A stretch of 64,000 nucleotides of DNA. Origin: a virus (taxonomy: Duplodnaviria; Caudoviricetes). Under the pieces are notes generated by a model, which was not told the DNA's origin, made no database searches, and saw only the letters and a program-made list of their open reading frames with translations. The DNA lies in IMG/VR virus record IMGVR_UViG_3300035522_000179, positions 128,001 to 192,000 of that record; one strand, given 5' to 3'. Positions 4,605 to 16,346 of the stretch are shown here, piece after piece. Position numbers and translations under genes: made by a program. Each line of letters opens with the position of its first letter. Position 1 is the stretch's first letter.

Positions 4605-5306
4605 TTGAACATAGAGAAATTATCAGAACCTGTGAGTGCTAAAGTAGAAGGGGATATCTCTTATCTTGGAAATATAAAAAAAGAAATCAAAGAAATCAAA
4701 AATGATATTCATAGAGCAAAGCAATCAAATGATTTCAATTCTTTAAAGAGAGATGTAAAAAGAATTGATGGTATCATTTCTGATTTGGAAAGAATTAATA
4801 GTAAAATGGATTACAGTACAGATGTCAAGGAATATAGACAGATGTCTGCCGTTTTACTTTCTCTTGGTTCAGTAATCAGTTTACTGTGGGTAGTTCCTGA
4901 TGTGAAAAAGATGATTGACGAAGACAAGCATTACAATGATTCGTTGATAGAAAAATTCATGAGGGAACAGGAAGAAGAGGAAAAGAAAGCTCAGATAAAG
5001 CATCGCTATTTTAAGGAGAAATTATCAAAGCAAGCATATTCCTTAACGAAGTTTCTTGGAACTACCGCTATTGCTGGTGGTGCATACAATGCTTACAATG
5101 CACATTATGTGAATAGTGTAAAAAAGCAATTCAAGAAAACAATTGATACCTTAAAAGAGATGAGTAAAGAAACCAAAACGTATATCGCTACAAGAGGAAG
5201 ATCTATAAAAGAATCAGTAGAGGATATTAAGTTAGAAATTTACGAGTCTTGTAGATATGGGGATATCTCTGAAGAAGAGATGGAAATACTTTTAAATATG
5301 ATATAA
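4605..5306 (+). CDS. putative internal head protein with conserved C-terminal YES-GxIS tag
   Basis: TTG start with RBS AGGAGGTG; ends ESVEDIKLEIYESCRYGDISEEEMEILLNMI. Confidence 0.7.
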   Translation: MNIEKLSEPVSAKVEGDISYLGNIKKEIKEIKNDIHRAKQSNDFNSLKRDVKRIDGIISDLERINSKMDYSTDVKEYRQMSAVLLSLGSVISLLWVVPDVKKMIDEDKHYNDSLIEKFMREQEEEEKKAQIKHRYFKEKLSKQAYSLTKFLGTTAIAGGAYNAYNAHYVNSVKKQFKKTIDTLKEMSKETKTYIATRGRSIKESVEDIKLEIYESCRYGDISEEEMEILLNMI

Positions 5307-5320
5307 AGGAGAAAACGGAT

Positions 5321-5950
5321 ATGAATCATTTTGAAATGCTCGCAGAACAAGTTTCCGAGCAATGCTATGAGGAAGCAGAAGCTTATTTGGAAGGAGCAAA
5401 CACCGAAGTTTCTAGAATCGGTAAGAGTGCTCTGAGAGAAAACAAAGCATTATTAAAAGAAGCAAAAAGAGCTTATCGTTTAGGAGAAACGAAAAAAGCG
5501 AAATCTTTACTGGACAAAATCATGAAAAACTTGGATGATGCTCTTGATGAGATCGACAAGATTGACGAAACAACTGGATCTGCACTTATAGGAAATATCG
5601 TGCATTCGTTTATTATGTTTATAAAGTTATTTCTTATACAGCTACTCACGTTTGGTATCGGAACCGGTATTTACGCTATAAAGAAAATGATTGAAAATGT
5701 TGTTGGTACGTTGGATCAGTTTAAACGAGTAAAAGATGTATCTCCAGCAATCGCTAATGCTAAGAGACAATCCCTTAGGGGTATGATTATTAGCTTAAAG
5801 CAGGTTGTAAGTAAAGTGAAAAAAGAAATGGGTTCTGATGGAGAAGATGTAGAGGAATCCACAGGACTTCAACTCGATATTTATGAGTCTTGCAAAAATG
5901 GAAATATCTCAGAAAGAGAAAAAGAAATACTTCTAGATTTAGTACAATAA
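5321..5950 (+). CDS. putative internal head protein with conserved C-terminal YES-GxIS tag
   Basis: Acidic leader ending YLEG; ends ESTGLQLDIYESCKNGNISEREKEILLDLVQ. Confidence 0.7.
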   Translation: MNHFEMLAEQVSEQCYEEAEAYLEGANTEVSRIGKSALRENKALLKEAKRAYRLGETKKAKSLLDKIMKNLDDALDEIDKIDETTGSALIGNIVHSFIMFIKLFLIQLLTFGIGTGIYAIKKMIENVVGTLDQFKRVKDVSPAIANAKRQSLRGMIISLKQVVSKVKKEMGSDGEDVEESTGLQLDIYESCKNGNISEREKEILLDLVQ

Positions 5951-5957
5951 TAACTTT

Positions 5958-6008
5958 ATCCTAGGTGGAGGAGTACAATTCAAGTACCCCCCCCCCCTAG
6001 GATTTTTT
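5958..6008 (+). terminator. imperfect hairpin/terminator containing a C11 homopolymer
   Basis: ATCCTAGGTGGAGGAGTAC...GTAC(C)nTAGGAT followed by a T tract. Confidence 0.6.
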
Positions 6009-6028
6009 ATGTAAGGAGGATATAAAGA

Positions 6029-6571
6029 ATGAGTAGATTTGATGAATTATATGATGTAGTAATGGAAGCAAATGCATATAATAAATATGCAAATAAATTA
6101 CAGGATGCCTTTAATAAAGATCCATATGATGATAAAGTAACTGATGATTGGGAAGATTTTTGGCATGAAACCAATAAATTGATGAGGGTTGGTGGATCTC
6201 CTAGTGCTCACAATCCTATATATAACAGAAAAGGAAATCCTGATGACAGGGAGCACGCTAGACTCGGGAAGAAAGCCTGGATGAAAAATCATGGAGATGT
6301 TGGAAGATCTCCAGAAAATCGATACAGAAGAGGAAGATATTTCGACGAACAAAAAAGAATTGACAGCTCAAATAAAAACGATCCCTACCGCATCCGGCTT
6401 CGCTTTAAGGCTCCTGATGTTCGTGATATTAAAGATAGACTCGAGGAAAACAGGAAATCCTTAAATGGAACGAAGGAATCCGTGGATGATATCAAGTTGG
6501 AGATTTATGAGTCTTGTCGGTATGGAGAAATTTCAGAAGAAGAAAGAGATTTACTTTTGGAAATGATTTAG
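6029..6571 (+). CDS. putative internal head protein with conserved C-terminal YES-GxIS tag
   Basis: Leader ending VMEA; ends ESVDDIKLEIYESCRYGEISEEERDLLLEMI. Confidence 0.7.
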   Translation: MSRFDELYDVVMEANAYNKYANKLQDAFNKDPYDDKVTDDWEDFWHETNKLMRVGGSPSAHNPIYNRKGNPDDREHARLGKKAWMKNHGDVGRSPENRYRRGRYFDEQKRIDSSNKNDPYRIRLRFKAPDVRDIKDRLEENRKSLNGTKESVDDIKLEIYESCRYGEISEEERDLLLEMI

Positions 6572-6575
6572 TATA

Positions 6576-6611
6576 AAAAAGAAGGAGTGATATTTTTCAC
6601 TCCTTCTTTTT
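6576..6611. terminator. bidirectional terminator
   Basis: AAAAAGAAGGAGTGA / TCACTCCTTCTTTTT between convergent genes. Confidence 0.85.
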
Positions 6612-6614
6612 CTT

Positions 6615-6998
6615 TTAGTCATCTACGATCAAAACTGACCGTTCTTTTAACTTGTTTCCACGGTATCCGATTACTTTGTACACATCATAGTTCTTTGTAA
6701 TGATTCGATCTCCTTCTGCGGCAAGAAGTCCGTCCATGATCGCCGGTCTTTCGTTCGTGCTATGGAAGTTGCTTTCCGGGAAATCGTATAAGGTTTCCCT
6801 TTGATCAACGAATCTTCCTTTGTTGGATTTCTGGAATCCCAACACATCATTCCATGTATCCATTGGATATTCCTTAATTAAGATTAAGTTCTTCGGAACA
6901 TCATCCACCAGGATTGCCAGTGTCTCAATTCCCAGTTTGTTCCTTTTTGGAAAAGGCTTTATTTTTGTAATCGGACTACCTTTCATGAAGTGTAACAT
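6615..6998 (-). CDS. hypothetical early protein
   Basis: Start moved to MLHFMK (RBS AGGAGG); the early motif overlaps the track start. Confidence 0.7.
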   Translation of the reverse strand: MLHFMKGSPITKIKPFPKRNKLGIETLAILVDDVPKNLILIKEYPMDTWNDVLGFQKSNKGRFVDQRETLYDFPESNFHSTNERPAIMDGLLAAEGDRIITKNYDVYKVIGYRGNKLKERSVLIVDD

Positions 6999-7136: not shown

Positions 7137-10100
7137 ATGATATATACCAATGATGTCCCCGAACTTGTCTTGTTTTCAAAGAGGGTTTTCCTTCCCAAAG
7201 GAGAACCACCAACAAGAGGGACTCTGATATATCACTACACCGAATCAGTTTCAGATACCATTGCGGAAATAGAAAATCCGCTTAACTACACTCCACAGAG
7301 TGCTGCAATGTATCGATTCTATTTCTATACCATGACCTATTCTGGAAAGATTAAGAATCGAAGATTTTTTATTAAAGATGTAAAAGAGAAGAAAGACATT
7401 TATACGAAAATAAAAGACGAAACGAACTTAAAGACAGTTCCTACGATTACTTTAAGTGATTTTAATATGAACTGTTATTTTGAGATGTCTAAGTATCTTC
7501 AGATCTATTACAATATGACCGAAAAGATTGACTGTAAATCCAAAGTGCTTATCTTTTGGGATTATTTAACAAAGATTTTAGAAGACCCTACGACATCAAA
7601 TTATAAAACAAAAGTTCTTTTAATTAATGCAGATCGATATGATAATGCATTCAAAGGGAAATTAAAAGAGAAACTTAGAAATCCGTTGTTTATGATTTAC
7701 TATACCCTCTTAAAAGATCCTTCCATTTGTGCAAAGTTTGACCATGATATCTTCATTTATTATAAGAATCGATCTATTCGAATCAACCCTGCTCATGCAG
7801 AGAAATCAAAAACTGCTGCAAGATTTAAAACCTTGCTTTTACAGTTACTCTCTCATGTGTCAAGGGATATTGTTGCTTCTACGGATGAGACCTCGATTCA
7901 AAGTGATGAGAAAGAGGAAGTGGTAAAAGAGATTATCACAAAAGAATACAATCCTCATTCCCAAACAGTAATGAATCAGACCATGAATGTTGAAGCACTC
8001 CCTTCGGTCATCAATAAAGAAGAGGAGCAGAAGGAAGAACCAAAAGAAGATACCAAAGAAAAGAAGTTAGCAGAAGATATTGACAAATCTCTGAATAAGA
8101 AAGCAGAAGAGATTTCTGCGGATGTATCCAGTGAGGAAGAAGCAAAGAGATTAGCAGAAGAAGCCATTCAAAACGATAAAGAGCTTCTTTCCAAATTGTA
8201 CGATCAAGCAGTAGCAGATAACAAACCAACCTCTTCTGCTTCTACTGCAAGAGATAAAAAGATACGTGAAGAACAAGGAAAGATCGTCGTTGGAAATATG
8301 TCGATTGATAAAATTCGTTCGGTTCAGTCTACCCATATGCCGATTCCGGAATCTGACGTATCCAACGTTATGAAAACAACCAATGACAATATGAAGCATA
8401 AGAAGTTTTCAAACTTCGAGCAAACCTATACAGAAAAAGTATTTCCGAAAGATATGGTAAATGCATTTGCTTCCTTAAACGATAAATCCATTCCCATGAC
8501 GATTATTAAGTATGATGTGAAAGATACATCGGATGAGTTAAATTACAAAGATACTTATACGGTAGTACTAGAAGATGTCAATAGACAGCGTCATACCATT
8601 TCTGTTGATATTCCGAAGTTTATTGATAATCGTTATATGTGGATTGGTGGAAGTAAGAAGATGATTCTTTATCAGAACTTCTTATATCCTGTGGTAAAGT
8701 CTGGTCCGGATGAGGTTCAGATTGTAACCAATTACAACAAGATGTTTATTGCGAGAAAAGGAACCAAGTCCATTAGTTCCTTGGAAAGATTAAATAAGTT
8801 CATTCAGGCAGAAAGTCTTTCGGAAAAATACTTTATCCCTGGATATGCTGTAAAATTAAATGCTGAGTATATCACAACCGTAGAGTACGATGAACTATCA
8901 AAGCAGTTTCTTCGTTTCGAGAACGGAAATACCATTCTTTATTTTAGTCAAGCACAAGCAATTGAAGCGGCTGCAAAGAAAGGAATTACCATTGGTGATA
9001 ATGAGATCTTTATTGGGTTTTTCAAAGGAACTCCAGTAACGATTGATCAAAATACACAGAGAACTGGAAATGATAAATCCATTACGGATATTATTATTGA
9101 GTCTCTTCCAGAAGAGTTACAGATTGCTTATGAGAAAACGAAAGCTCCTAAGAGACTTCTGTATTCCGTTGCTACTACCATGAGACAGCCAGTAGCACTT
9201 GGATTGCTTCTTGGATTCTGGGAAGGATTATCCAGTGTGATGAAGAATCTTGGAATTGAGTATACCCTGGAGACAAAAGCTCCCAGTCATTTAAAGGCTG
9301 GTCAGAACTATTTACAGTTTGCTGATTGTACTTTGGTCTATTCCGAAACCATTGCGCAGTCTTTGGTAATGAATGGATTTCGAGCAATCGAAACGATTCA
9401 GTATAAGATTACCGAAATGGAAACCAAAGAGCCTTACATGGATTATTTGGTAAAGGTTTATGGAAAACGTAGTATCGCAAATGCACTTATGAACGTCTAC
9501 GAGTTTACCATTGACCCGATTACGAAAGAGATTTTGGAAGATTTGAATCTTCCTACTACTTTGGTTCCTTTGTGTATTTATGCAAACTCTTTGCTTGCAG
9601 ATTCTCAGTATACTCCGGACTATAACCAGAAATTATGTCGTATTCGTAGTTCTGAGATCGTTCCTTCGATTCTTTATGATGCAATTGCAAAGCAGTATAT
9701 TGTGTATAAGAACTCCAATGGGAAAAAGAAATTATCTCTTCCGAAGGATATCGTGATCAATCGATTACTAGAACTTCCTACAGTAGAAGATGTTTCTACG
9801 TTGAATCCTTTGTTGGAGATGGAAAGAAAACATACTACGATGTATAAAGGTTGGAGAGGAATTAACTCTGATCATACTTATACTCAGGATAAGCGAGTTT
9901 ATGATGATTCCATGATTGGCATTATTGGACTTGCAACATCCCCTGATGGTTCCGTTGGCGTACAGAAAGTATTGACTATGGAACCCAATGTTGTATCCGC
10001 TAGAGGATACTTAAAAGTAACAAATGATGAGAAGGAGTTAAAAGATGTCAATCTTTATTCTCCTGCAGAAATGCTCTGTCCTCTTGGTCCTACAAGAGAT

Positions 10101-12038
10101 GACCCTACACGAACAGGTCATGGTGTAAAACAGTCAAAGCACGTCATCCCTGTAAAGCATTCTTCTCCAGTCTTAATCTCAAATGGTGCAGAAGAATCCG
10201 TTCGATTTGATTTATCGTCTTCCTTTGTGATTAACGCAAAAGAAGATGGAACTGTTGTAGATGAAATCGTAGATAAGAATGGTGAAGTAACGATGCTTAT
10301 TTGTGAGTACAAAGATGGTACTCATCAAGCAATTGATTTGTCTCCGAAGATTGAGAAAAACGGTGGTGGTGGTTTCTACCTTTCAAACCGGATGCAATCC
10401 AATCTTCGTGTGGGAATGAAGTTTAAGAAGAATGATATGCTTGCTTGGCATAAAGATTTCTTCAAAGCGGGTCAGTATACTGGAAACCGAATGAACATGG
10501 GAACTATGGTAAAGATTGGAATTTTGTCTACGTACAATACGTATCAGGACTCCACTGTCATTACGGAAAAGATGTCCCATGAGATGGCAACGGAAATGGC
10601 ATTTAACCGACAAGTTGTAATTGGTAAAAATGCTACCGTGGACTTTATCGCAAACGTTGGAGATCGTGTTCAGATTGGATCTTCTTTGATTCAGTTTGAT
10701 ACTTCTTATGAAGACAACGAACTCAATAAGTTATTAAGTACTCTTTCCGATGAATTAAAAGAAGGAGTTATGGAGAATAGTAGAAACAACATCAAATCAA
10801 AAACCGCTGGGGTGATTGAAGATATCAAGATGTATTCTACCGTAGACTTAGAGGAGCTTAGCCCTTCTCTTAGAGCAATCTTTTCGAAGTATTATAAGAA
10901 AATCAACGAAAAGAAAAAGATGCTTTCGAAATATGACCCAAATGATTCCATTATGAAGTGTGGTGTGCTGTTTACCGAAACTACTGGTAAAGTAACTCCG
11001 AACAAATATGGAATGGTAAAAGGTCAGAAACTAGAAGATGGTGTGTTGATCGAGTTTTATATCAAGCACGAAGAGTATTTGGAGATTGGATCGAAGGTGG
11101 CGTATTTTACTGGTTTGAAAGCTACGATTGGTGAAGTGATTCCCGGAGGATACGAACCTTATTCGGAGTTTCGAAAGGATGAAGAAGTAAGTACTCTAAT
11201 CGCTTCCAACTCCGTATTGAAGCGTATGACCCCTTCCATTCTTCTTACCAGTTTTGGAAACAAATGTATTGTGGAATTGAAGAGATCTCTTAAAACCATC
11301 TTTGACCGAACACCTGATGATATAAAGTGTAAAGAAGAGATGTTATCTCTGATTTGTAGATTTTTCACTGCATTTGACAAGACAAAAACGAACACGAATA
11401 AGTATAAATCGATGTTTGAACCTATGACTCCTCCTGCATTTAGAAAGTGGTTTCGAGGGTTCTTTGAAGATGAAGATGCTTATTTGATTTTGGATATTGT
11501 AGATTACGAAAGAACGATTACCTTTGATGATATTGACCGCGCTGCGAAAGTAATTAACGTTCCTTTGTTTGAATATGTATATCTCCCTCATGTAACTATG
11601 GATAAAACCAGAATCATTCGTACAAGGGAGAAAGTTCCAGTTGGATATATTCACGTAAAGAGAACACAGCAAACGGTTGCAAAAAAGAACGGTATTTCTA
11701 CTTCCAGTAATATCCGTTCTGCGATGACAGGACAGGTAACTGGTGCAGATAAGAACGGACGAGAATCCGATCTGGAAAACTCCATGTTGGTTGCTCTGGA
11801 TATGCAAAACTGCTTAAAAGAGCTCAATGGTCCTCGAGCTGATGACATGGTTGCAAAAAGAGAAATGCTTTCGGATATTGCAAAACAAGGATATGTAAAA
11901 TATAGTGATTTGACTTATGATGTGAATAATAAGACAACACTTAATACGGTAGATACCTATTTCCTTGGAATGGGTATTAAAACAGATCTTGTGACAAAGG
12001 GACTTATGTTAAACTCCACTTTGAAGAAAGATATGTAA
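7137..12038 (+). CDS. RNA polymerase beta-like subunit, unsplit, probably virion RNAP
   Basis: Collinear beta motifs: DIPKFIDNRYMWIGG, TSPDGSVG (ETPEGPNIG), DDPTR..GVKQSKHVIP (DDANR..MQRQAVP), YNTYQDS (YNFEDS), GSKVAYFTGLKATI (GDKMAGRHGNKGVI), VPVGYIHVKR, GRESDLE; ~400-aa N-terminal extension; late promoter. Confidence 0.88.
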   Translation: MIYTNDVPELVLFSKRVFLPKGEPPTRGTLIYHYTESVSDTIAEIENPLNYTPQSAAMYRFYFYTMTYSGKIKNRRFFIKDVKEKKDIYTKIKDETNLKTVPTITLSDFNMNCYFEMSKYLQIYYNMTEKIDCKSKVLIFWDYLTKILEDPTTSNYKTKVLLINADRYDNAFKGKLKEKLRNPLFMIYYTLLKDPSICAKFDHDIFIYYKNRSIRINPAHAEKSKTAARFKTLLLQLLSHVSRDIVASTDETSIQSDEKEEVVKEIITKEYNPHSQTVMNQTMNVEALPSVINKEEEQKEEPKEDTKEKKLAEDIDKSLNKKAEEISADVSSEEEAKRLAEEAIQNDKELLSKLYDQAVADNKPTSSASTARDKKIREEQGKIVVGNMSIDKIRSVQSTHMPIPESDVSNVMKTTNDNMKHKKFSNFEQTYTEKVFPKDMVNAFASLNDKSIPMTIIKYDVKDTSDELNYKDTYTVVLEDVNRQRHTISVDIPKFIDNRYMWIGGSKKMILYQNFLYPVVKSGPDEVQIVTNYNKMFIARKGTKSISSLERLNKFIQAESLSEKYFIPGYAVKLNAEYITTVEYDELSKQFLRFENGNTILYFSQAQAIEAAAKKGITIGDNEIFIGFFKGTPVTIDQNTQRTGNDKSITDIIIESLPEELQIAYEKTKAPKRLLYSVATTMRQPVALGLLLGFWEGLSSVMKNLGIEYTLETKAPSHLKAGQNYLQFADCTLVYSETIAQSLVMNGFRAIETIQYKITEMETKEPYMDYLVKVYGKRSIANALMNVYEFTIDPITKEILEDLNLPTTLVPLCIYANSLLADSQYTPDYNQKLCRIRSSEIVPSILYDAIAKQYIVYKNSNGKKKLSLPKDIVINRLLELPTVEDVSTLNPLLEMERKHTTMYKGWRGINSDHTYTQDKRVYDDSMIGIIGLATSPDGSVGVQKVLTMEPNVVSARGYLKVTNDEKELKDVNLYSPAEMLCPLGPTRDDPTRTGHGVKQSKHVIPVKHSSPVLISNGAEESVRFDLSSSFVINAKEDGTVVDEIVDKNGEVTMLICEYKDGTHQAIDLSPKIEKNGGGGFYLSNRMQSNLRVGMKFKKNDMLAWHKDFFKAGQYTGNRMNMGTMVKIGILSTYNTYQDSTVITEKMSHEMATEMAFNRQVVIGKNATVDFIANVGDRVQIGSSLIQFDTSYEDNELNKLLSTLSDELKEGVMENSRNNIKSKTAGVIEDIKMYSTVDLEELSPSLRAIFSKYYKKINEKKKMLSKYDPNDSIMKCGVLFTETTGKVTPNKYGMVKGQKLEDGVLIEFYIKHEEYLEIGSKVAYFTGLKATIGEVIPGGYEPYSEFRKDEEVSTLIASNSVLKRMTPSILLTSFGNKCIVELKRSLKTIFDRTPDDIKCKEEMLSLICRFFTAFDKTKTNTNKYKSMFEPMTPPAFRKWFRGFFEDEDAYLILDIVDYERTITFDDIDRAAKVINVPLFEYVYLPHVTMDKTRIIRTREKVPVGYIHVKRTQQTVAKKNGISTSSNIRSAMTGQVTGADKNGRESDLENSMLVALDMQNCLKELNGPRADDMVAKREMLSDIAKQGYVKYSDLTYDVNNKTTLNTVDTYFLGMGIKTDLVTKGLMLNSTLKKDM

Positions 12039-12584: not shown

Positions 12585-15500
12585 TTACATGGATTTTCTT
12601 TCCTTAATCTCAGCCATCTTCGCAGCGTTCAATCTTGTCTGACCATGGACTCTGGAATAGGAAAGATATCCATTCATTCTTTCAATGGATACGATATTCT
12701 CGCTTCCACACTTAGGGCAAACATCCGTATCCGTACTTTCATGTCCGCATTCTTCGCAATAGCAGAGTTTGAAGTTTACTCCTTCATAAAGACCCATTTT
12801 CATTGCTCTGCGTACATAAGTACGAATGGCTTCCAAGTTGTAGTTGCAAGTATATTTTACATATTGGATTCTTCCGCCCTGGAACAAATCCCAGTAAGAA
12901 GCTTCCTTATCCTGTTTTTCGATTCCATCCATTTCCTCTGTAACATGACAGTGGAAGGAATTGCTTACATAATCTCGATCCGAAACGTTTTCAATAATTC
13001 CATACTTTTGTCTAAACTGAGTAACCTGAGTTCCACAGTTATGAACCAGAACTCCAGCGTCACCAATTAAGAAGTTATGGGTATCCAGTACTTCCAAATT
13101 GTAAACATCACAAGGATCATCTAAGAACTTCACCGATTTTACATAAGTACATTTTGCTTCACTTGCAAAGTTTACGTAGAAGGTCATCAAAACATCATTC
13201 TCTTGGAGATACTGTGCTTCTACATATCCAATACAATCATTTCCTCTTACGGCAAAAGGATGATCGGAGGTACAAATAAATTTATCTCCATCCGAAGTTT
13301 CTACTTCTACAACTCTTGCTCCTTTTTGTGTTAGGGAGGAAGCTACTACCGTTCTTAACTTAAATCGATTTGCATCATGATCATAGCTATACACCAGATC
13401 CCCTGCTTTTACATCTTTGATACATTTCTTTACACTTCCGTCAGAATCAATTCCACTTACCCACACTTTGGTGTCTCCAGCAAAACACAAACTCTCTGCA
13501 GGAGTTCCATAAATACCGTAAGCAATGTGGTCTTCTTTCTTAAACTCCAAAGCTTTCTTGTTAATGTATTCCATAACCTGTCTCGGAAATTCACCGTCTT
13601 CACGAATGGATTTCTTATTGTAGATTCGGTTTAATTCATTTAACGCAGTAATACCAAAACTTGCAGTTGCCTGATCAAGTAACGGTTTGATCTTATCACT
13701 AGGATTCAAATGACCACCATGAATCCCACCCTGGCAAAATGCCAAAGGATTCGTGGATGCTCTCATCTCACCAAGGTATTCTTTTGTCTTCACATGAACG
13801 TCCCTAGCGAGTTCCAAATATTCATCCAAAACTTCATAGAAGTCTCGGCTTTCCTGTTGTGCTTTCATATAAATCATCGGAAGATTTAAAGAAACCACAC
13901 CCATATTGAATCTTCCTGTAAAGTAAGGACGATCCTCTTCATCTGCCGGTTCAAATCCTCCTCTTTCATAATAAGGAGAAAGGAAGGAACGACAGTTATG
14001 AGAATAGATTCCAGATACATCAAAATGATCAGAATCTGTTGTAACATCGTAACTATAATCAAAATAGTTGTCACGATGTTTGATTTCAATAACCGTACCA
14101 TCCACAAAGGGTTCTGAATTACTGGATGGCTTAGACGATACATAATTCTTCTTATCTTCTATTACAATATAATTCTTCAAATCATCGATCAAATGGGCAT
14201 GTACGGTGTACGTGTCCTTTCCATAGTTTACTTCTGCTTGCATTCCAACCGATTGCATCAAAGCCATAATTTGAAGAATCAATTCCTTACCAGAACTTGA
14301 CAAGGTAATAGAAACAGTGGAATCCAAAGTCCACTTCATAATCACTCCAGCATACTCAATAAGCCCTGCTAAAAACGCAAGTTTGCATTCTCTACTTGAC
14401 CTGAAGATAATACTAGGAATAATCCGCATCTCTACATTCTGAGATGCAAATAATATCATCAATTTAGCAAGAGATGGTCTGCTATCAAATTTATAAATCG
14501 TGGATGATCTTTTATGGGGATAAGGATAATAATCTGTTCCTATCTCCGGTCCAATTTTTGAAAAATTCTTTTCCAATTCATTGAAAAATTTTTCCGTATA
14601 CTCTTTGGGTACATTCTCCGGAACTGCTATAGAATCGGTACGCTCATCTAAAGCAAGCAACAGCGTTCCTAACATCCAAGAAAAATCCGGTGTTATATCA
14701 TAATCGTTTACCCAGGTATGAACGTCATCCGTGATATCATCAGACACTTCGTTGTATTGGGTTGTGATAACGGGTATCACATCTCCAATTGAAATCTGAT
14801 CTGCTCTTGTTCTTCCTTTTCCTTTTACGGGGAAGGGATGATCCGGTGTACAAGTAATAACACGTCCGTTTTCCAAGGTAAGAGTAATCCATGACCTTGT
14901 TTCATTACGAACCATTCGACTCACATTCACGAATCCATTTTTTGAATCATAAATCTGAACGTCCATCAAGTCCATATAAAGATGGGATTCCCCTTCAATT
15001 TGAGGCATTGTACTGAATACTTTACGGATTCGACTCCACATTCTGGAGATGGATTCCACATAAAGATTTCCCTCAAACTTATAAGTTACTATTTCTTTTC
15101 CATCTACACAACCCATAGGAGCAATGATTTCTCCATAGTTGTGATACATCTCTGCAATGGTGGTATTACCATCCAAAGACAAATAATCGGGATACATTGC
15201 TTTGGAACTACACTTTACAGCGAGTTCAAATAAATCTTCCAGAGGTTTTCCTTCTCCGTGAAGATCTTCGGTATAAGTGAAAACAAGTTTCGGGAAAAGG
15301 ACTGCTCTTTTCTTTCCGGGAGCTCCCTGTCCACCCATTCTTGTTTCCAAACATTTTCTTGCTGCTAATACAGCAAATTTATCTGTCGATGCACCGATAG
15401 TAAATGTAGTAAAAGGGTAATCCCCTCTACTACTTGCAACGGTGTTTAATTTTATTTCCAGACCCTGGAATCCCTGTTCCATATCTCTTTCCAAGGTTGC

Positions 15501-16346
15501 CCAGGCTTCTTCCTCAACCTGTTTCTCGATCTCAGAATGTGTCTGTTCTTTTACTTCATCGGAAACCAAATCAAGGACTTTTTCTTTCTTCTCAAGGTAT
15601 TCCTTTTTATATTTTTCATAACTCTTCTTCGCATACTTAGATAAGATCTCATCAATTCTCGGAACTGTAAATCCGCCATACTGCTGACTTGCTGCGGAAA
15701 GAATGATATCACCAATCACATCAAATGCAGTGTCAAGAGTTTTCGGTTCATTGTAAAAAATATTTCCCATTTCAAATCCGTTTTCCAAAACGGACTTTAC
15801 ATCAAACAGACAACAGTTAAAGCCATCTCTTCTAGAGGACATATCATGAACGTAGATATATCCATCTTTACATGCCTGTAAGGTTTTTACATTCATAAAG
15901 AACTTCTGGTAAAGCTCTTTGTTTAACTGACCGTAAATAAGGCATCTCTTGGTACTTGCCAAAGCAGAATCCGAATTGGCATTCTCCTTATCTCCAATAT
16001 ACATAATGGACTGAGATTTCTTATATACGGAATCCAAAATTTCTACAAAGCTCTGTTTGTAGTCTCTATAATCTCTATAAGATTTTGCAACAATGGGAGC
16101 AACGCTATCCAATGCCTTCTCCACAATATTGTGCATCGTGGGAACTGTCACGTACATGATGTCATCCTCTTCTCGTTCCCAATTGGATCGATTTAAAAGT
16201 TCTTCCACTACGAACTCCTGCAGTTTATCTAATTCTTCCTCAGTAAAGGTGTATAAACTTCGATACGCCGACTTCTTTACTGCGGTAATGACCTTTTGAA
16301 TGTCAAAGTCCTGCAGGGTTCCGTCCTTTTTAATCACTCTAACCAT
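12585..16346 (-). CDS. nrdD: anaerobic ribonucleoside-triphosphate reductase with two inteins
   Basis: N-terminal ATP cone (VIKKDG), NCC, PMGC/RS, TPAESL/C, C-terminal CxxC..CPKCG and RMNGY glycyl-radical motif; 731 aa after removing the inteins. Confidence 0.95.
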   Translation of the reverse strand: MVRVIKKDGTLQDFDIQKVITAVKKSAYRSLYTFTEEELDKLQEFVVEELLNRSNWEREEDDIMYVTVPTMHNIVEKALDSVAPIVAKSYRDYRDYKQSFVEILDSVYKKSQSIMYIGDKENANSDSALASTKRCLIYGQLNKELYQKFFMNVKTLQACKDGYIYVHDMSSRRDGFNCCLFDVKSVLENGFEMGNIFYNEPKTLDTAFDVIGDIILSAASQQYGGFTVPRIDEILSKYAKKSYEKYKKEYLEKKEKVLDLVSDEVKEQTHSEIEKQVEEEAWATLERDMEQGFQGLEIKLNTVASSRGDYPFTTFTIGASTDKFAVLAARKCLETRMGGQGAPGKKRAVLFPKLVFTYTEDLHGEGKPLEDLFELAVKCSSKAMYPDYLSLDGNTTIAEMYHNYGEIIAPMGCVDGKEIVTYKFEGNLYVESISRMWSRIRKVFSTMPQIEGESHLYMDLMDVQIYDSKNGFVNVSRMVRNETRSWITLTLENGRVITCTPDHPFPVKGKGRTRADQISIGDVIPVITTQYNEVSDDITDDVHTWVNDYDITPDFSWMLGTLLLALDERTDSIAVPENVPKEYTEKFFNELEKNFSKIGPEIGTDYYPYPHKRSSTIYKFDSRPSLAKLMILFASQNVEMRIIPSIIFRSSRECKLAFLAGLIEYAGVIMKWTLDSTVSITLSSSGKELILQIMALMQSVGMQAEVNYGKDTYTVHAHLIDDLKNYIVIEDKKNYVSSKPSSNSEPFVDGTVIEIKHRDNYFDYSYDVTTDSDHFDVSGIYSHNCRSFLSPYYERGGFEPADEEDRPYFTGRFNMGVVSLNLPMIYMKAQQESRDFYEVLDEYLELARDVHVKTKEYLGEMRASTNPLAFCQGGIHGGHLNPSDKIKPLLDQATASFGITALNELNRIYNKKSIREDGEFPRQVMEYINKKALEFKKEDHIAYGIYGTPAESLCFAGDTKVWVSGIDSDGSVKKCIKDVKAGDLVYSYDHDANRFKLRTVVASSLTQKGARVVEVETSDGDKFICTSDHPFAVRGNDCIGYVEAQYLQENDVLMTFYVNFASEAKCTYVKSVKFLDDPCDVYNLEVLDTHNFLIGDAGVLVHNCGTQVTQFRQKYGIIENVSDRDYVSNSFHCHVTEEMDGIEKQDKEASYWDLFQGGRIQYVKYTCNYNLEAIRTYVRRAMKMGLYEGVNFKLCYCEECGHESTDTDVCPKCGSENIVSIERMNGYLSYSRVHGQTRLNAAKMAEIKERKSM
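13038..13487 (-). mobile_element. mini-intein (150 aa) in NrdD
   Basis: PAESL|CFAGDTKV...block B TSDHPF...VYNLEV..THNFL..VLVHN|C. Confidence 0.93.
13995..15110 (-). mobile_element. intein (372 aa) with degenerate LAGLIDADG domain in NrdD
   Basis: PMG|CVDGKE...TPDHPF...LAFLAGLIEYAG...YDVTT..HFDVSGIYSHN|CRS. Confidence 0.93.

Follow-up and report, generated by a model that had tools for sequence, protein, structure and literature searches.

Why should phage proteins with dissimilar bodies end in the same short peptide? The question is raised by a window of 64,000 nucleotides (bases 128001–192000 of the 249,613-bp virus record IMGVR_UViG_3300035522_000179; GC content about 0.35), in which three adjacent genes, P0001, P0002 and P0003, and a fourth one, P0004, each end in a module of about 31 residues, called the tag below. 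The record represents an uncultured phage of about 250 kb related to Bacillus phage AR9. In an initial annotation of the window, the tag had been proposed to be a C-terminal docking address that loads interchangeable payloads into the prohead and is then trimmed off. All four open reading frames (ORFs) named there were confirmed to end in the module (table 1). That this module is portable, is carried by unrelated payloads and is kept by selection on the peptide is well supported by comparisons within the genome and across metagenomes.

A profile of the four tags was searched against all six-frame ORFs of the genome and gave 13 matches (E from 1e-19 to 7e-7), the next one lying at E 0.14. All 13 canonical copies were found at the extreme C-terminus. 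A larger profile, made from 155 tag instances, added two divergent C-terminal copies, in a protein of 455 residues (P 1.4e-7) and in another of 177 residues (P 2.6e-6). The four copies first noticed are thus real, but they are a small part of 13 canonical and two divergent ones. The tagged genes are dispersed, with nine at 33–44 kb of the genome, one at 125 kb, the adjacent genes P0001–P0003, and P0004.

To what extent are the bodies of these proteins related? The tag-stripped proteins were grouped by BLAST into family A with five members (P0003 among them), family B with three (P0001 among them) and family C with two, while D, E (P0002) and F (P0004) remained singletons. BLAST gave no match between families beyond a common N-terminus of 11 residues. 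Iterative jackhmmer searches with tag-masked sequences joined families B and E through 18 shared intermediates, and hhalign matched the two over 52 N-terminal columns (probability 58%, P 1e-4); therefore, a remote paralogy of P0001 and P0002 is probable. When families A and F were compared by hhalign with every other family, nothing was found (best P 0.03, most at least 0.13). The view that the bodies are unrelated thus holds for P0003 and P0004, which match neither each other nor the rest, but probably not for P0001 and P0002. In this genome, the same tag is carried by families A, B/E, C, D and F and by the 455-residue and 177-residue proteins. Families B–E each contain one strongly hydrophobic Gly/Ala-rich helix, which stands between coiled-coil-like segments (Kyte-Doolittle means over 19 residues of up to 2.0–2.6), and family A contains none.

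The tag profile was then searched against 1.84 billion cluster representatives. At E<=1e-3 we found 191 protein clusters, of which 27 reached E<=1e-10; a few of the weaker matches are repeat proteins and false positives. In 117 of 156 scanned proteins a copy lay no more than 8 residues from the C-terminus, and about 50 proteins had two or more copies. Of 193 copies of at least 15 bits, 44 are internal and 26 begin no more than 12 residues from the N-terminus; many relatives contain two or three copies, and natural body-tag-body-tag fusions exist. After the tags had been masked, 169 body segments fell into 86 groups at BLAST level, 67 of them singletons, so that many different bodies are indeed fused to the tag, as had been expected. 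Recognizable enzyme payloads are rare (GNAT, HAD and a weak transglutaminase-like match). Some proteins, each roughly 100 residues long (P0030, P0080, P0107, P0113 and others), have no payload: an acidic linker joins a tag at the N-terminus to another at the C-terminus. They might serve as bivalent adaptors or mini-scaffolds. G001 (278,849 bp) and G004 (275,512 bp, with terminal repeats), two further complete jumbo phages from IMG/VR, possess seven and ten copies, respectively. The description of the tag as C-terminal fits all 15 genes of the present genome but is too narrow for the relatives with their N-terminal and internal copies. For the capsid protein of the lineage, more than 500 homologues were counted in metagenomes, many of them encoded on contigs of 240–300 kb.

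The initial annotation had also held that tag copies differ largely at synonymous positions, and this was borne out. Between copies, 11–31 of the 93 positions of tag-coding DNA differ. P0001 and P0003 differ at 22 of 93 nucleotides, giving 13 synonymous and 6 non-synonymous codon differences; by the Nei-Gojobori method their synonymous sites are saturated, while about 10% of non-synonymous sites differ. Over 21 tag pairs, 176 synonymous codon differences stand against 99 non-synonymous ones. Non-synonymous divergence (dN, also Nei-Gojobori) is 0.04–0.14 and synonymous divergence (dS) 0.2–1.0 in the tags, whereas dN reaches 0.33–0.93 in the bodies of the same gene pairs. Since the differences between tags are mostly synonymous, selection acts on the peptide, and recent gene conversion is not the cause of the likeness. 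A full-length paralogue family uniting all bodies is contradicted by the hhalign results for families A and F, by the 86 body groups and by the divergence of the tags.

What kind of structure is being conserved? AlphaFold2 was applied to a tag-linker-tag miniprotein, and each tag was predicted as a helix, a loop of 4–5 residues and a second helix, with a predicted local distance difference test (pLDDT) of about 80–91. The residues invariant in the alignment are E-S, G, I, L and S/T-x-x-E, of which E-S, G, I and S/T-x-x-E would be expected to act as helix C-cap, turn glycine, hydrophobic staple and N-capping box. No Pfam or PHROG family covers the module, and the tag profile found nothing significant among PDB sequences. 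An EF-hand was rejected because the loop contains Gly and Ile, without Asp/Asn ligands, and is three residues shorter in P0004; the sole EF-hand match (12 bits) concerned one divergent copy.

Homologues of the tag that are not terminal occur in a single gene of the genome, and this gene lies directly behind the prohead protease. The protease (genome 205591–206529, minus strand) belongs to Peptidase_S80 (PF20034; it scored 35.6 bits, the cutoff being 23.4, and 34.4 bits when the genome was scanned) and matches the head maturation protease family PHROG 3014 at E 1e-16; Peptidase_S80 is also found in G001. The next gene on the same strand (genome 204267–205574) encodes a very acidic protein of 435 residues with an Asp/Ser/Gly-rich tract, which we call the scaffold-like protein; it matches no family in Pfam or PHROG, and no relative was found for it in the collection of cultured phages. 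When its alignment was compared with the 155-sequence tag profile by hhalign, residues 166–198 matched with P 1.7e-5 (79%) and residues 230–250 with P 3.3e-5 (72%). The control was a comparison of the tag profile with all 231 ORFs that encode 150 residues or more: the 15 tagged proteins ranked first, the scaffold-like protein, entered as a single sequence, followed at P 1.1e-4, and the best background value was 0.005, about the level of chance. Moreover, G001 and G004 possess the same gene pair of protease and scaffold-like protein, with these hairpins, which makes three independent jumbo phages. In the head-protease cluster, a protein of 213 residues (genome 202644–203285, minus strand) has a loosely tag-like first helix (hhalign P 0.01, not significant alone), and its orthologue in G001 (L010:7547–8167) starts alike.

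Many tagged proteins also share an N-terminal leader of 13–19 residues, which starts with Met-x-x-Phe-Asp/Thr-Glu-Leu, ends with hydrophobic-x-Glu-Ser/Ala and resembles the first helix of the tag. It was found on 9 of the 13 tagged genes, across families A, C, D and E. In this genome the leader profile matched only nine ORFs, all bearing tags (E<=2e-9, the next at 0.49), and elsewhere it matched more than 25 tagged metagenomic proteins from other phages. P0002, P0003 and P0004 do have the short leaders reported for them, with the ends Y-L-E↓G, V-M-E↓A and M-L-E↓S, respectively; the last is missed by the leader profile. The proposed order of leader, payload and tag therefore applies to 9 of 13 genes here, but relatives also place the module N-terminally, internally or without a payload. 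Of 125 C-terminal copies, 88 have the motif hydrophobic-x-E-[SAG] on their upstream side, and 18 of the 26 N-terminal ones have it downstream, about 70% beside tags compared with 13–15% in body windows of the same size. The K/R-E-S junction before C-terminal tags is kept even where the adjacent residues vary. The S80 protease of phage SPN3US cuts after A-x-E and prefers Ser at P1' (PMC10052503). In the major capsid protein of the present phage (genome 224018–225769, minus strand; matched to the PHROG major head protein at E 2e-38), five hydrophobic-x-E-S/A sites fall within residues 1–110 and a single one within the other 470; the Glu of the K/R-E-S site at E109 does not vary among 37 homologues. 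This conserved site ends the N-terminal region of the capsid protein, and the K-E-S junction preceding the tags resembles it.

Based on these observations, we hypothesized that the hairpin of about 31 residues is a portable interaction module copying the repeated hairpins of a scaffold-like core protein. Because the hairpin would copy the scaffold-like protein's own, a tagged late protein, usually with a 13-residue leader too, is proposed to co-assemble with the scaffolding core and so to be enclosed in the prohead. The S80 prohead protease would then cut the hydrophobic-x-Glu↓Ser/Ala sites flanking leaders and tags, and the payloads would be freed inside the head, retained there and ejected with the DNA. 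We give an even chance to this sequence of loading by a scaffold-mimicking tag, trimming by the S80 protease and retention for ejection. A more specific form of it, that an uncultured AR9-like clade packs dozens of interchangeable payloads for injection by a two-part, scaffold-derived address (a half-hairpin leader plus a full tag, bounded by protease sites), is possible but falls somewhat short of an even chance. The same tentative standing is given to its picture of the payloads as fast-evolving and as including membrane-active proteins, GNAT and HAD enzymes and a possible metalloprotease.

Several results weigh against loading by a scaffold-mimicking tag, and the evidence tying the tag to the head is indirect throughout. 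The label of the 435-residue protein as a scaffold is an inference from gene position, acidic composition and predicted helices, and its third, C-terminal hairpin is not significant alone (P 0.008). In the AlphaFold2 model of the miniprotein, the mutual placement of the two hairpins was not confident (predicted template modelling score 0.31), which leaves an intramolecular tag-tag bundle unsupported. The Glu-Ser enrichment is partly built in, because K-E-S and L-L-E are positions of the search profile, and E-S, G and S/T-x-x-E may be conserved as ordinary helix caps instead of protease sites. The hydrophobic helix of families B–E fits membrane proteins as well as ejection proteins. Nine tagged genes stand behind a 44-bp palindrome with no clear late motif, the payload-free miniproteins suggest cross-linking more than a pure address, and the cultured relatives PBS1-like Goe21 and Staphylococcus phage SA1 are without the tag at E<=1.

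Is the tag then tied to the head at all? It might be a general association hairpin, by which late proteins are joined into a non-capsid complex such as a membrane-anchored assembly, a lysis complex or an exclusion complex, the scaffold-like protein merely using the same kind of self-association hairpin. The Gly/Ala-rich helices of families B, C, D and E would suit such complexes, and the two or three copies per protein and the tag-linker-tag proteins suggest multivalent networking. P0004 adjoins a gene judged by eye to be of lysis type, and weak spanin-like PHROG matches were found in 3 of 142 relatives. However, a hydrophobic helix is lacking in family A (P0003), in P0004 and in the enzyme payloads, the non-terminal homologues of the tag occur only directly behind the prohead protease in three phages, and the leader and junction motifs fit prohead-protease sites. 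We therefore regard both the non-capsid complex and the matching role of the scaffold-like protein as unlikely.

The multiple copies can also be read within the head. If the tag were kept untrimmed, it could be a permanent cross-linker of the head interior, forming with the scaffold-like protein a network resembling an inner body. This would agree with the three copies in the scaffold-like protein and the two or three in many relatives, with miniproteins made of two tags and a linker, with the reading of E-S, G and S/T-x-x-E as helix caps instead of cleavage sites, and with the 42 head proteins of SPN3US that remain uncleaved (PMC10052503). Trimming is favoured over it by the conservation of K/R-E-S amid variable neighbours and by the N-terminal copies, which are usually followed by a hydrophobic-x-E-S/A site; nor was confident tag-tag packing predicted within one chain. 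A permanent cross-linker thus seems rather improbable.

The tag might, finally, be a divergent member of a known family without any special capsid link. SHOCT (Pfam PF09851) is a widespread domain carried by many unrelated proteins; it comprises about 30 residues with two amphipathic helices, conserved Gly and Glu and a C-terminal preference, and its function is not known (PMC3581485). The tag is similar in size, in its two amphipathic helices, in the Gly and Glu of its G-x-I-S/T-x-x-E core and in its mostly C-terminal position. Nevertheless, the SHOCT model matched none of seven tag peptides at E<=10 and, with the same limit, no tag position when all six frames of the genome were scanned. A search of 142 relatives at E<=0.01 listed 25 families without SHOCT among them, and SHOCT is mostly cellular. 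The likeness arises because the invariant residues are generic helix-capping and turn features, so that convergence is plausible; since the function of SHOCT is not known, membership would in any case be compatible with capsid loading. We consider such membership improbable, and the tag matches no known stand-alone domain in Pfam, PHROG or PDB. The sole SHOCT match in the genome (223496–223549, plus strand; 14.5 bits against a cutoff of 27) lies in an open frame of 99 residues a short way 3' of the major capsid gene and outside all tagged genes.

Least credible of all is an ordinary paralogue family whose C-termini are alike through recent gene conversion or recombination: several bodies are indeed paralogous (families A, B and C, with B and E remotely related), and beyond the stop codon the DNA of P0001 is identical to that of its paralogue at 125239 as far as the ribosome-binding site and start codon that follow. 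However, the tag DNA and its synonymous sites have diverged as given above, families A and F show no relation to the others by hhalign, and the module is found with 86 body groups, enzymes included, and stands N-terminally or internally in some proteins.

The features of the tagged genes in the window are collected in table 1.

Table 1. Features of the four tagged genes in the window (positions count from the first base of the window; the arrow marks the candidate cleavage point)
Feature	Position	Strand	Remarks
Late-promoter-like motif GACA-N6-TAA	4563..4575	+	42 nt upstream of P0001 start; one-base variant of AAAACA-N6-TAA and of the AR9 late consensus
P0001, 233 aa	4605..5306	+	TTG start behind GGAGG; helical, one hydrophobic helix; body family B; no N-terminal leader
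P0001 C-terminal helix-loop-helix tag, 31 aa	5211..5303	+	Preceded by I-K-E↓S; 68 bits (tag profile)
P0002, 209 aa	5321..5950	+	Body family E; one hydrophobic helix
P0002 N-terminal acidic leader	5321..5392	+	Ends Y-L-E↓G; leader profile E 2e-9
P0002 C-terminal tag, 31 aa	5855..5947	+	Preceded by V-E-E↓S
Inverted CCTAGG pair around C11 run	5960..6001	.	Intergenic, P0002/P0003
P0003, 180 aa	6029..6571	+	Body family A; Arg/Asp/Asn-rich; no hydrophobic helix
P0003 N-terminal leader, 13 aa	6029..6067	+	Ends V-M-E↓A; leader profile E 1e-11
P0003 C-terminal tag, 31 aa	6476..6568	+	Preceded by T-K-E↓S; 72 bits (tag profile)
Terminator-like hairpin and T-run	6579..6616	+	Directly after P0003 stop; read from the sequence
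Late-promoter-like motif AACA-N6-TAA	34976..34988	+	38 nt upstream of P0004 start
P0004, 367 aa	35014..36117	+	Body family F; no relative among the other tagged proteins
P0004 divergent C-terminal tag, 26 aa	36037..36114	+	Preceded by V-K-E↓A; E 1.4e-10; hhalign P 4e-6

The late consensus of AR9 is AACA-(6N)-TA/G (PMC5312081), and the motif before P0004 and the structural genes matches it. AAAACA-N6-TAA stands 38–65 nt upstream of the protease gene, a tube-like gene and other genes of the head cluster, the RNA polymerase gene (7137), a gene for a protein of 325 residues (3518) and P0004. The initial annotation had expected RACA-N6-TA promoters before all tagged genes; this is supported for P0004 and, in the GACA variant, for P0001, but P0002 and P0003 have no late motif of their own. 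P0002 is probably co-transcribed with P0001, because it starts 14 nt past the P0001 stop and lacks a promoter motif of its own. Late expression of the P0001–P0003 trio and of P0004 is plausible from these motifs.

Searches of P0001–P0004 against Pfam and PHROG gave only sub-threshold coiled-coil noise. The Atlas model of P0003 was of low confidence, and ESM Atlas offered no usable look-alike for it. P0003 has four paralogues in the 33–44 kb locus, and P0001 has paralogues at genome 33853–34578 and 125239–125970. After the latter (genome 125937–126301), the junction of P0001 and P0002 is repeated with the same ribosome-binding site and ATG, and two short ORFs in different frames encode a tag between them, one its first half and the other its second, which has the look of a tagged gene that has decayed through a frameshift. 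A C12 run similar to the C11 run between P0002 and P0003 stands before the tagged gene at genome 42729, and homopolymer tracts of this size could be length-variable or assembly-sensitive. The 455-residue protein (genome 35300–36664, minus strand) lies inside the 33–44 kb locus and contains H-E-I-G-H and E-E-F-A-D motifs and several hydrophobic helices besides its divergent C-terminal tag; its homologue P0150 from another phage, 44% identical, has the N-terminal leader and a canonical tag. It may be a Zn-metalloprotease payload, for which the motifs alone speak because Pfam, PDB sequences and the structure model (pLDDT 38, unusable) give no support.

The genome contains RNA polymerase, DNA polymerase, protease and tail-like genes, and its genes are preceded by strong GGAGG-type ribosome-binding sites. 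The collection of cultured phages gave no nucleotide match to the genome, and nucleotide and protein searches of it gave no relatives of the tagged locus, P0003 or the scaffold-like protein. The large RNA polymerase-like protein is about 30% identical to those of the Bacillus phages PBS1 and Goe21, of Staphylococcus jumbo phages, Listeria phage LPJP1 and Yersinia phage phiR1-37. Directly 3' of the tagged trio, an RNA polymerase beta-like protein of 1633 residues is encoded (window 7137–12038, plus strand; late motif 38 nt upstream), of which the first 310 or so and the last 240 or so residues lie outside the matches to cultured jumbo phages. The window also encodes an NrdD-like anaerobic ribonucleotide reductase of 1253 residues (window 12585–16346, minus strand), whose family match falls into three separated blocks with helicase-like and unassigned segments between them. 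This arrangement suggests one or more inteins or other insertions.

How does the tag compare with known ways of bringing proteins into capsids? In T4, the capsid-targeting sequence (CTS) of the internal proteins IPI, IPII, IPIII and Alt is removed by the prohead protease gp21, and Alt is cut at both ends (PMC9026906). As in T4, where the CTS directs proteins into the scaffolding core and is cut after Glu before the payloads are ejected, a short candidate signal is common to otherwise unrelated, fast-evolving proteins; gp21 belongs to the same clan as the S80 protease, and the 13-residue leader is similar to the CTS in length and position and ends in hydrophobic-x-Glu. Unlike the CTS, an N-terminal propeptide of 10–19 residues, the main candidate signal here is a predicted folded helix-loop-helix of about 31 residues, which is usually C-terminal but also N-terminal or internal, is homologous to scaffold-like repeats and is often paired with a second signal. 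In P22 (gp8), 80alpha and SaPI1 (scaffold and CpmB), lambda (C and Nu3) and HK97 (protease tail), a capsid-binding helical hairpin or tail at the C-terminus brings the protein into the procapsid; such elements are common to two or three assembly proteins, and the P22 hairpin is basic. The tag is likewise a helical hairpin homologous to an element of the phage's own putative scaffold, but it is strongly acidic and is carried by 15 or more diverse payloads.

Encapsulin cargo-loading peptides are short and mostly C-terminal and load diverse enzymes into an HK97-fold shell, fusion being sufficient (PMC8346489, PMC11866011). The tag shares with them its conservation, its mostly C-terminal position and its portability among diverse proteins. 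The tag is a folded hairpin by prediction; encapsulin peptides are extended, bind the shell directly and are not removed. Genes for encapsulin cargo adjoin the shell gene, whereas the tagged genes are dispersed in a 250-kb jumbo phage with a scaffold-like core protein and a maturation protease. The phiKZ-like giant phages also possess a Peptidase_S80 protease that cleaves after Glu, and many of their internal head proteins are ejected. All known substrates of phiKZ gp175 and SPN3US gp245 except the protease itself lose N-terminal propeptides of 20–254 residues (PMC10052503), and no shared portable tag has been reported for them. The statement that no portable C-terminal tag of this kind is known to have been described needs to be narrowed, since the principle has precedents in the T4 CTS and Alt, in scaffold and protease proteins with common capsid-binding tails and in encapsulins. 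What is new here is the combination of a folded, acidic, position-independent helix-loop-helix, homologous to scaffold repeats, with a half-hairpin leader and many unrelated payloads, and it is confined so far to an uncultured clade.

Even if the tag were merely an association hairpin, it would be an undescribed, widespread and strongly conserved module of phage proteins. If instead tagged proteins are loaded by mimicry of the scaffold, cargo signals can arise by copying the scaffold's own interaction hairpin, and the tag would offer a compact, folded, position-independent means of loading foreign proteins into large capsids. It would also give a sequence rule by which the injected proteins of uncultured jumbo phages can be listed from metagenomes, with about 190 clusters already at hand. 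If the two-part address is true as well, these phages would possess a natural plug-and-play cargo system, and the catalogue of its payloads would be a list of new host-takeover or anti-defence effectors.

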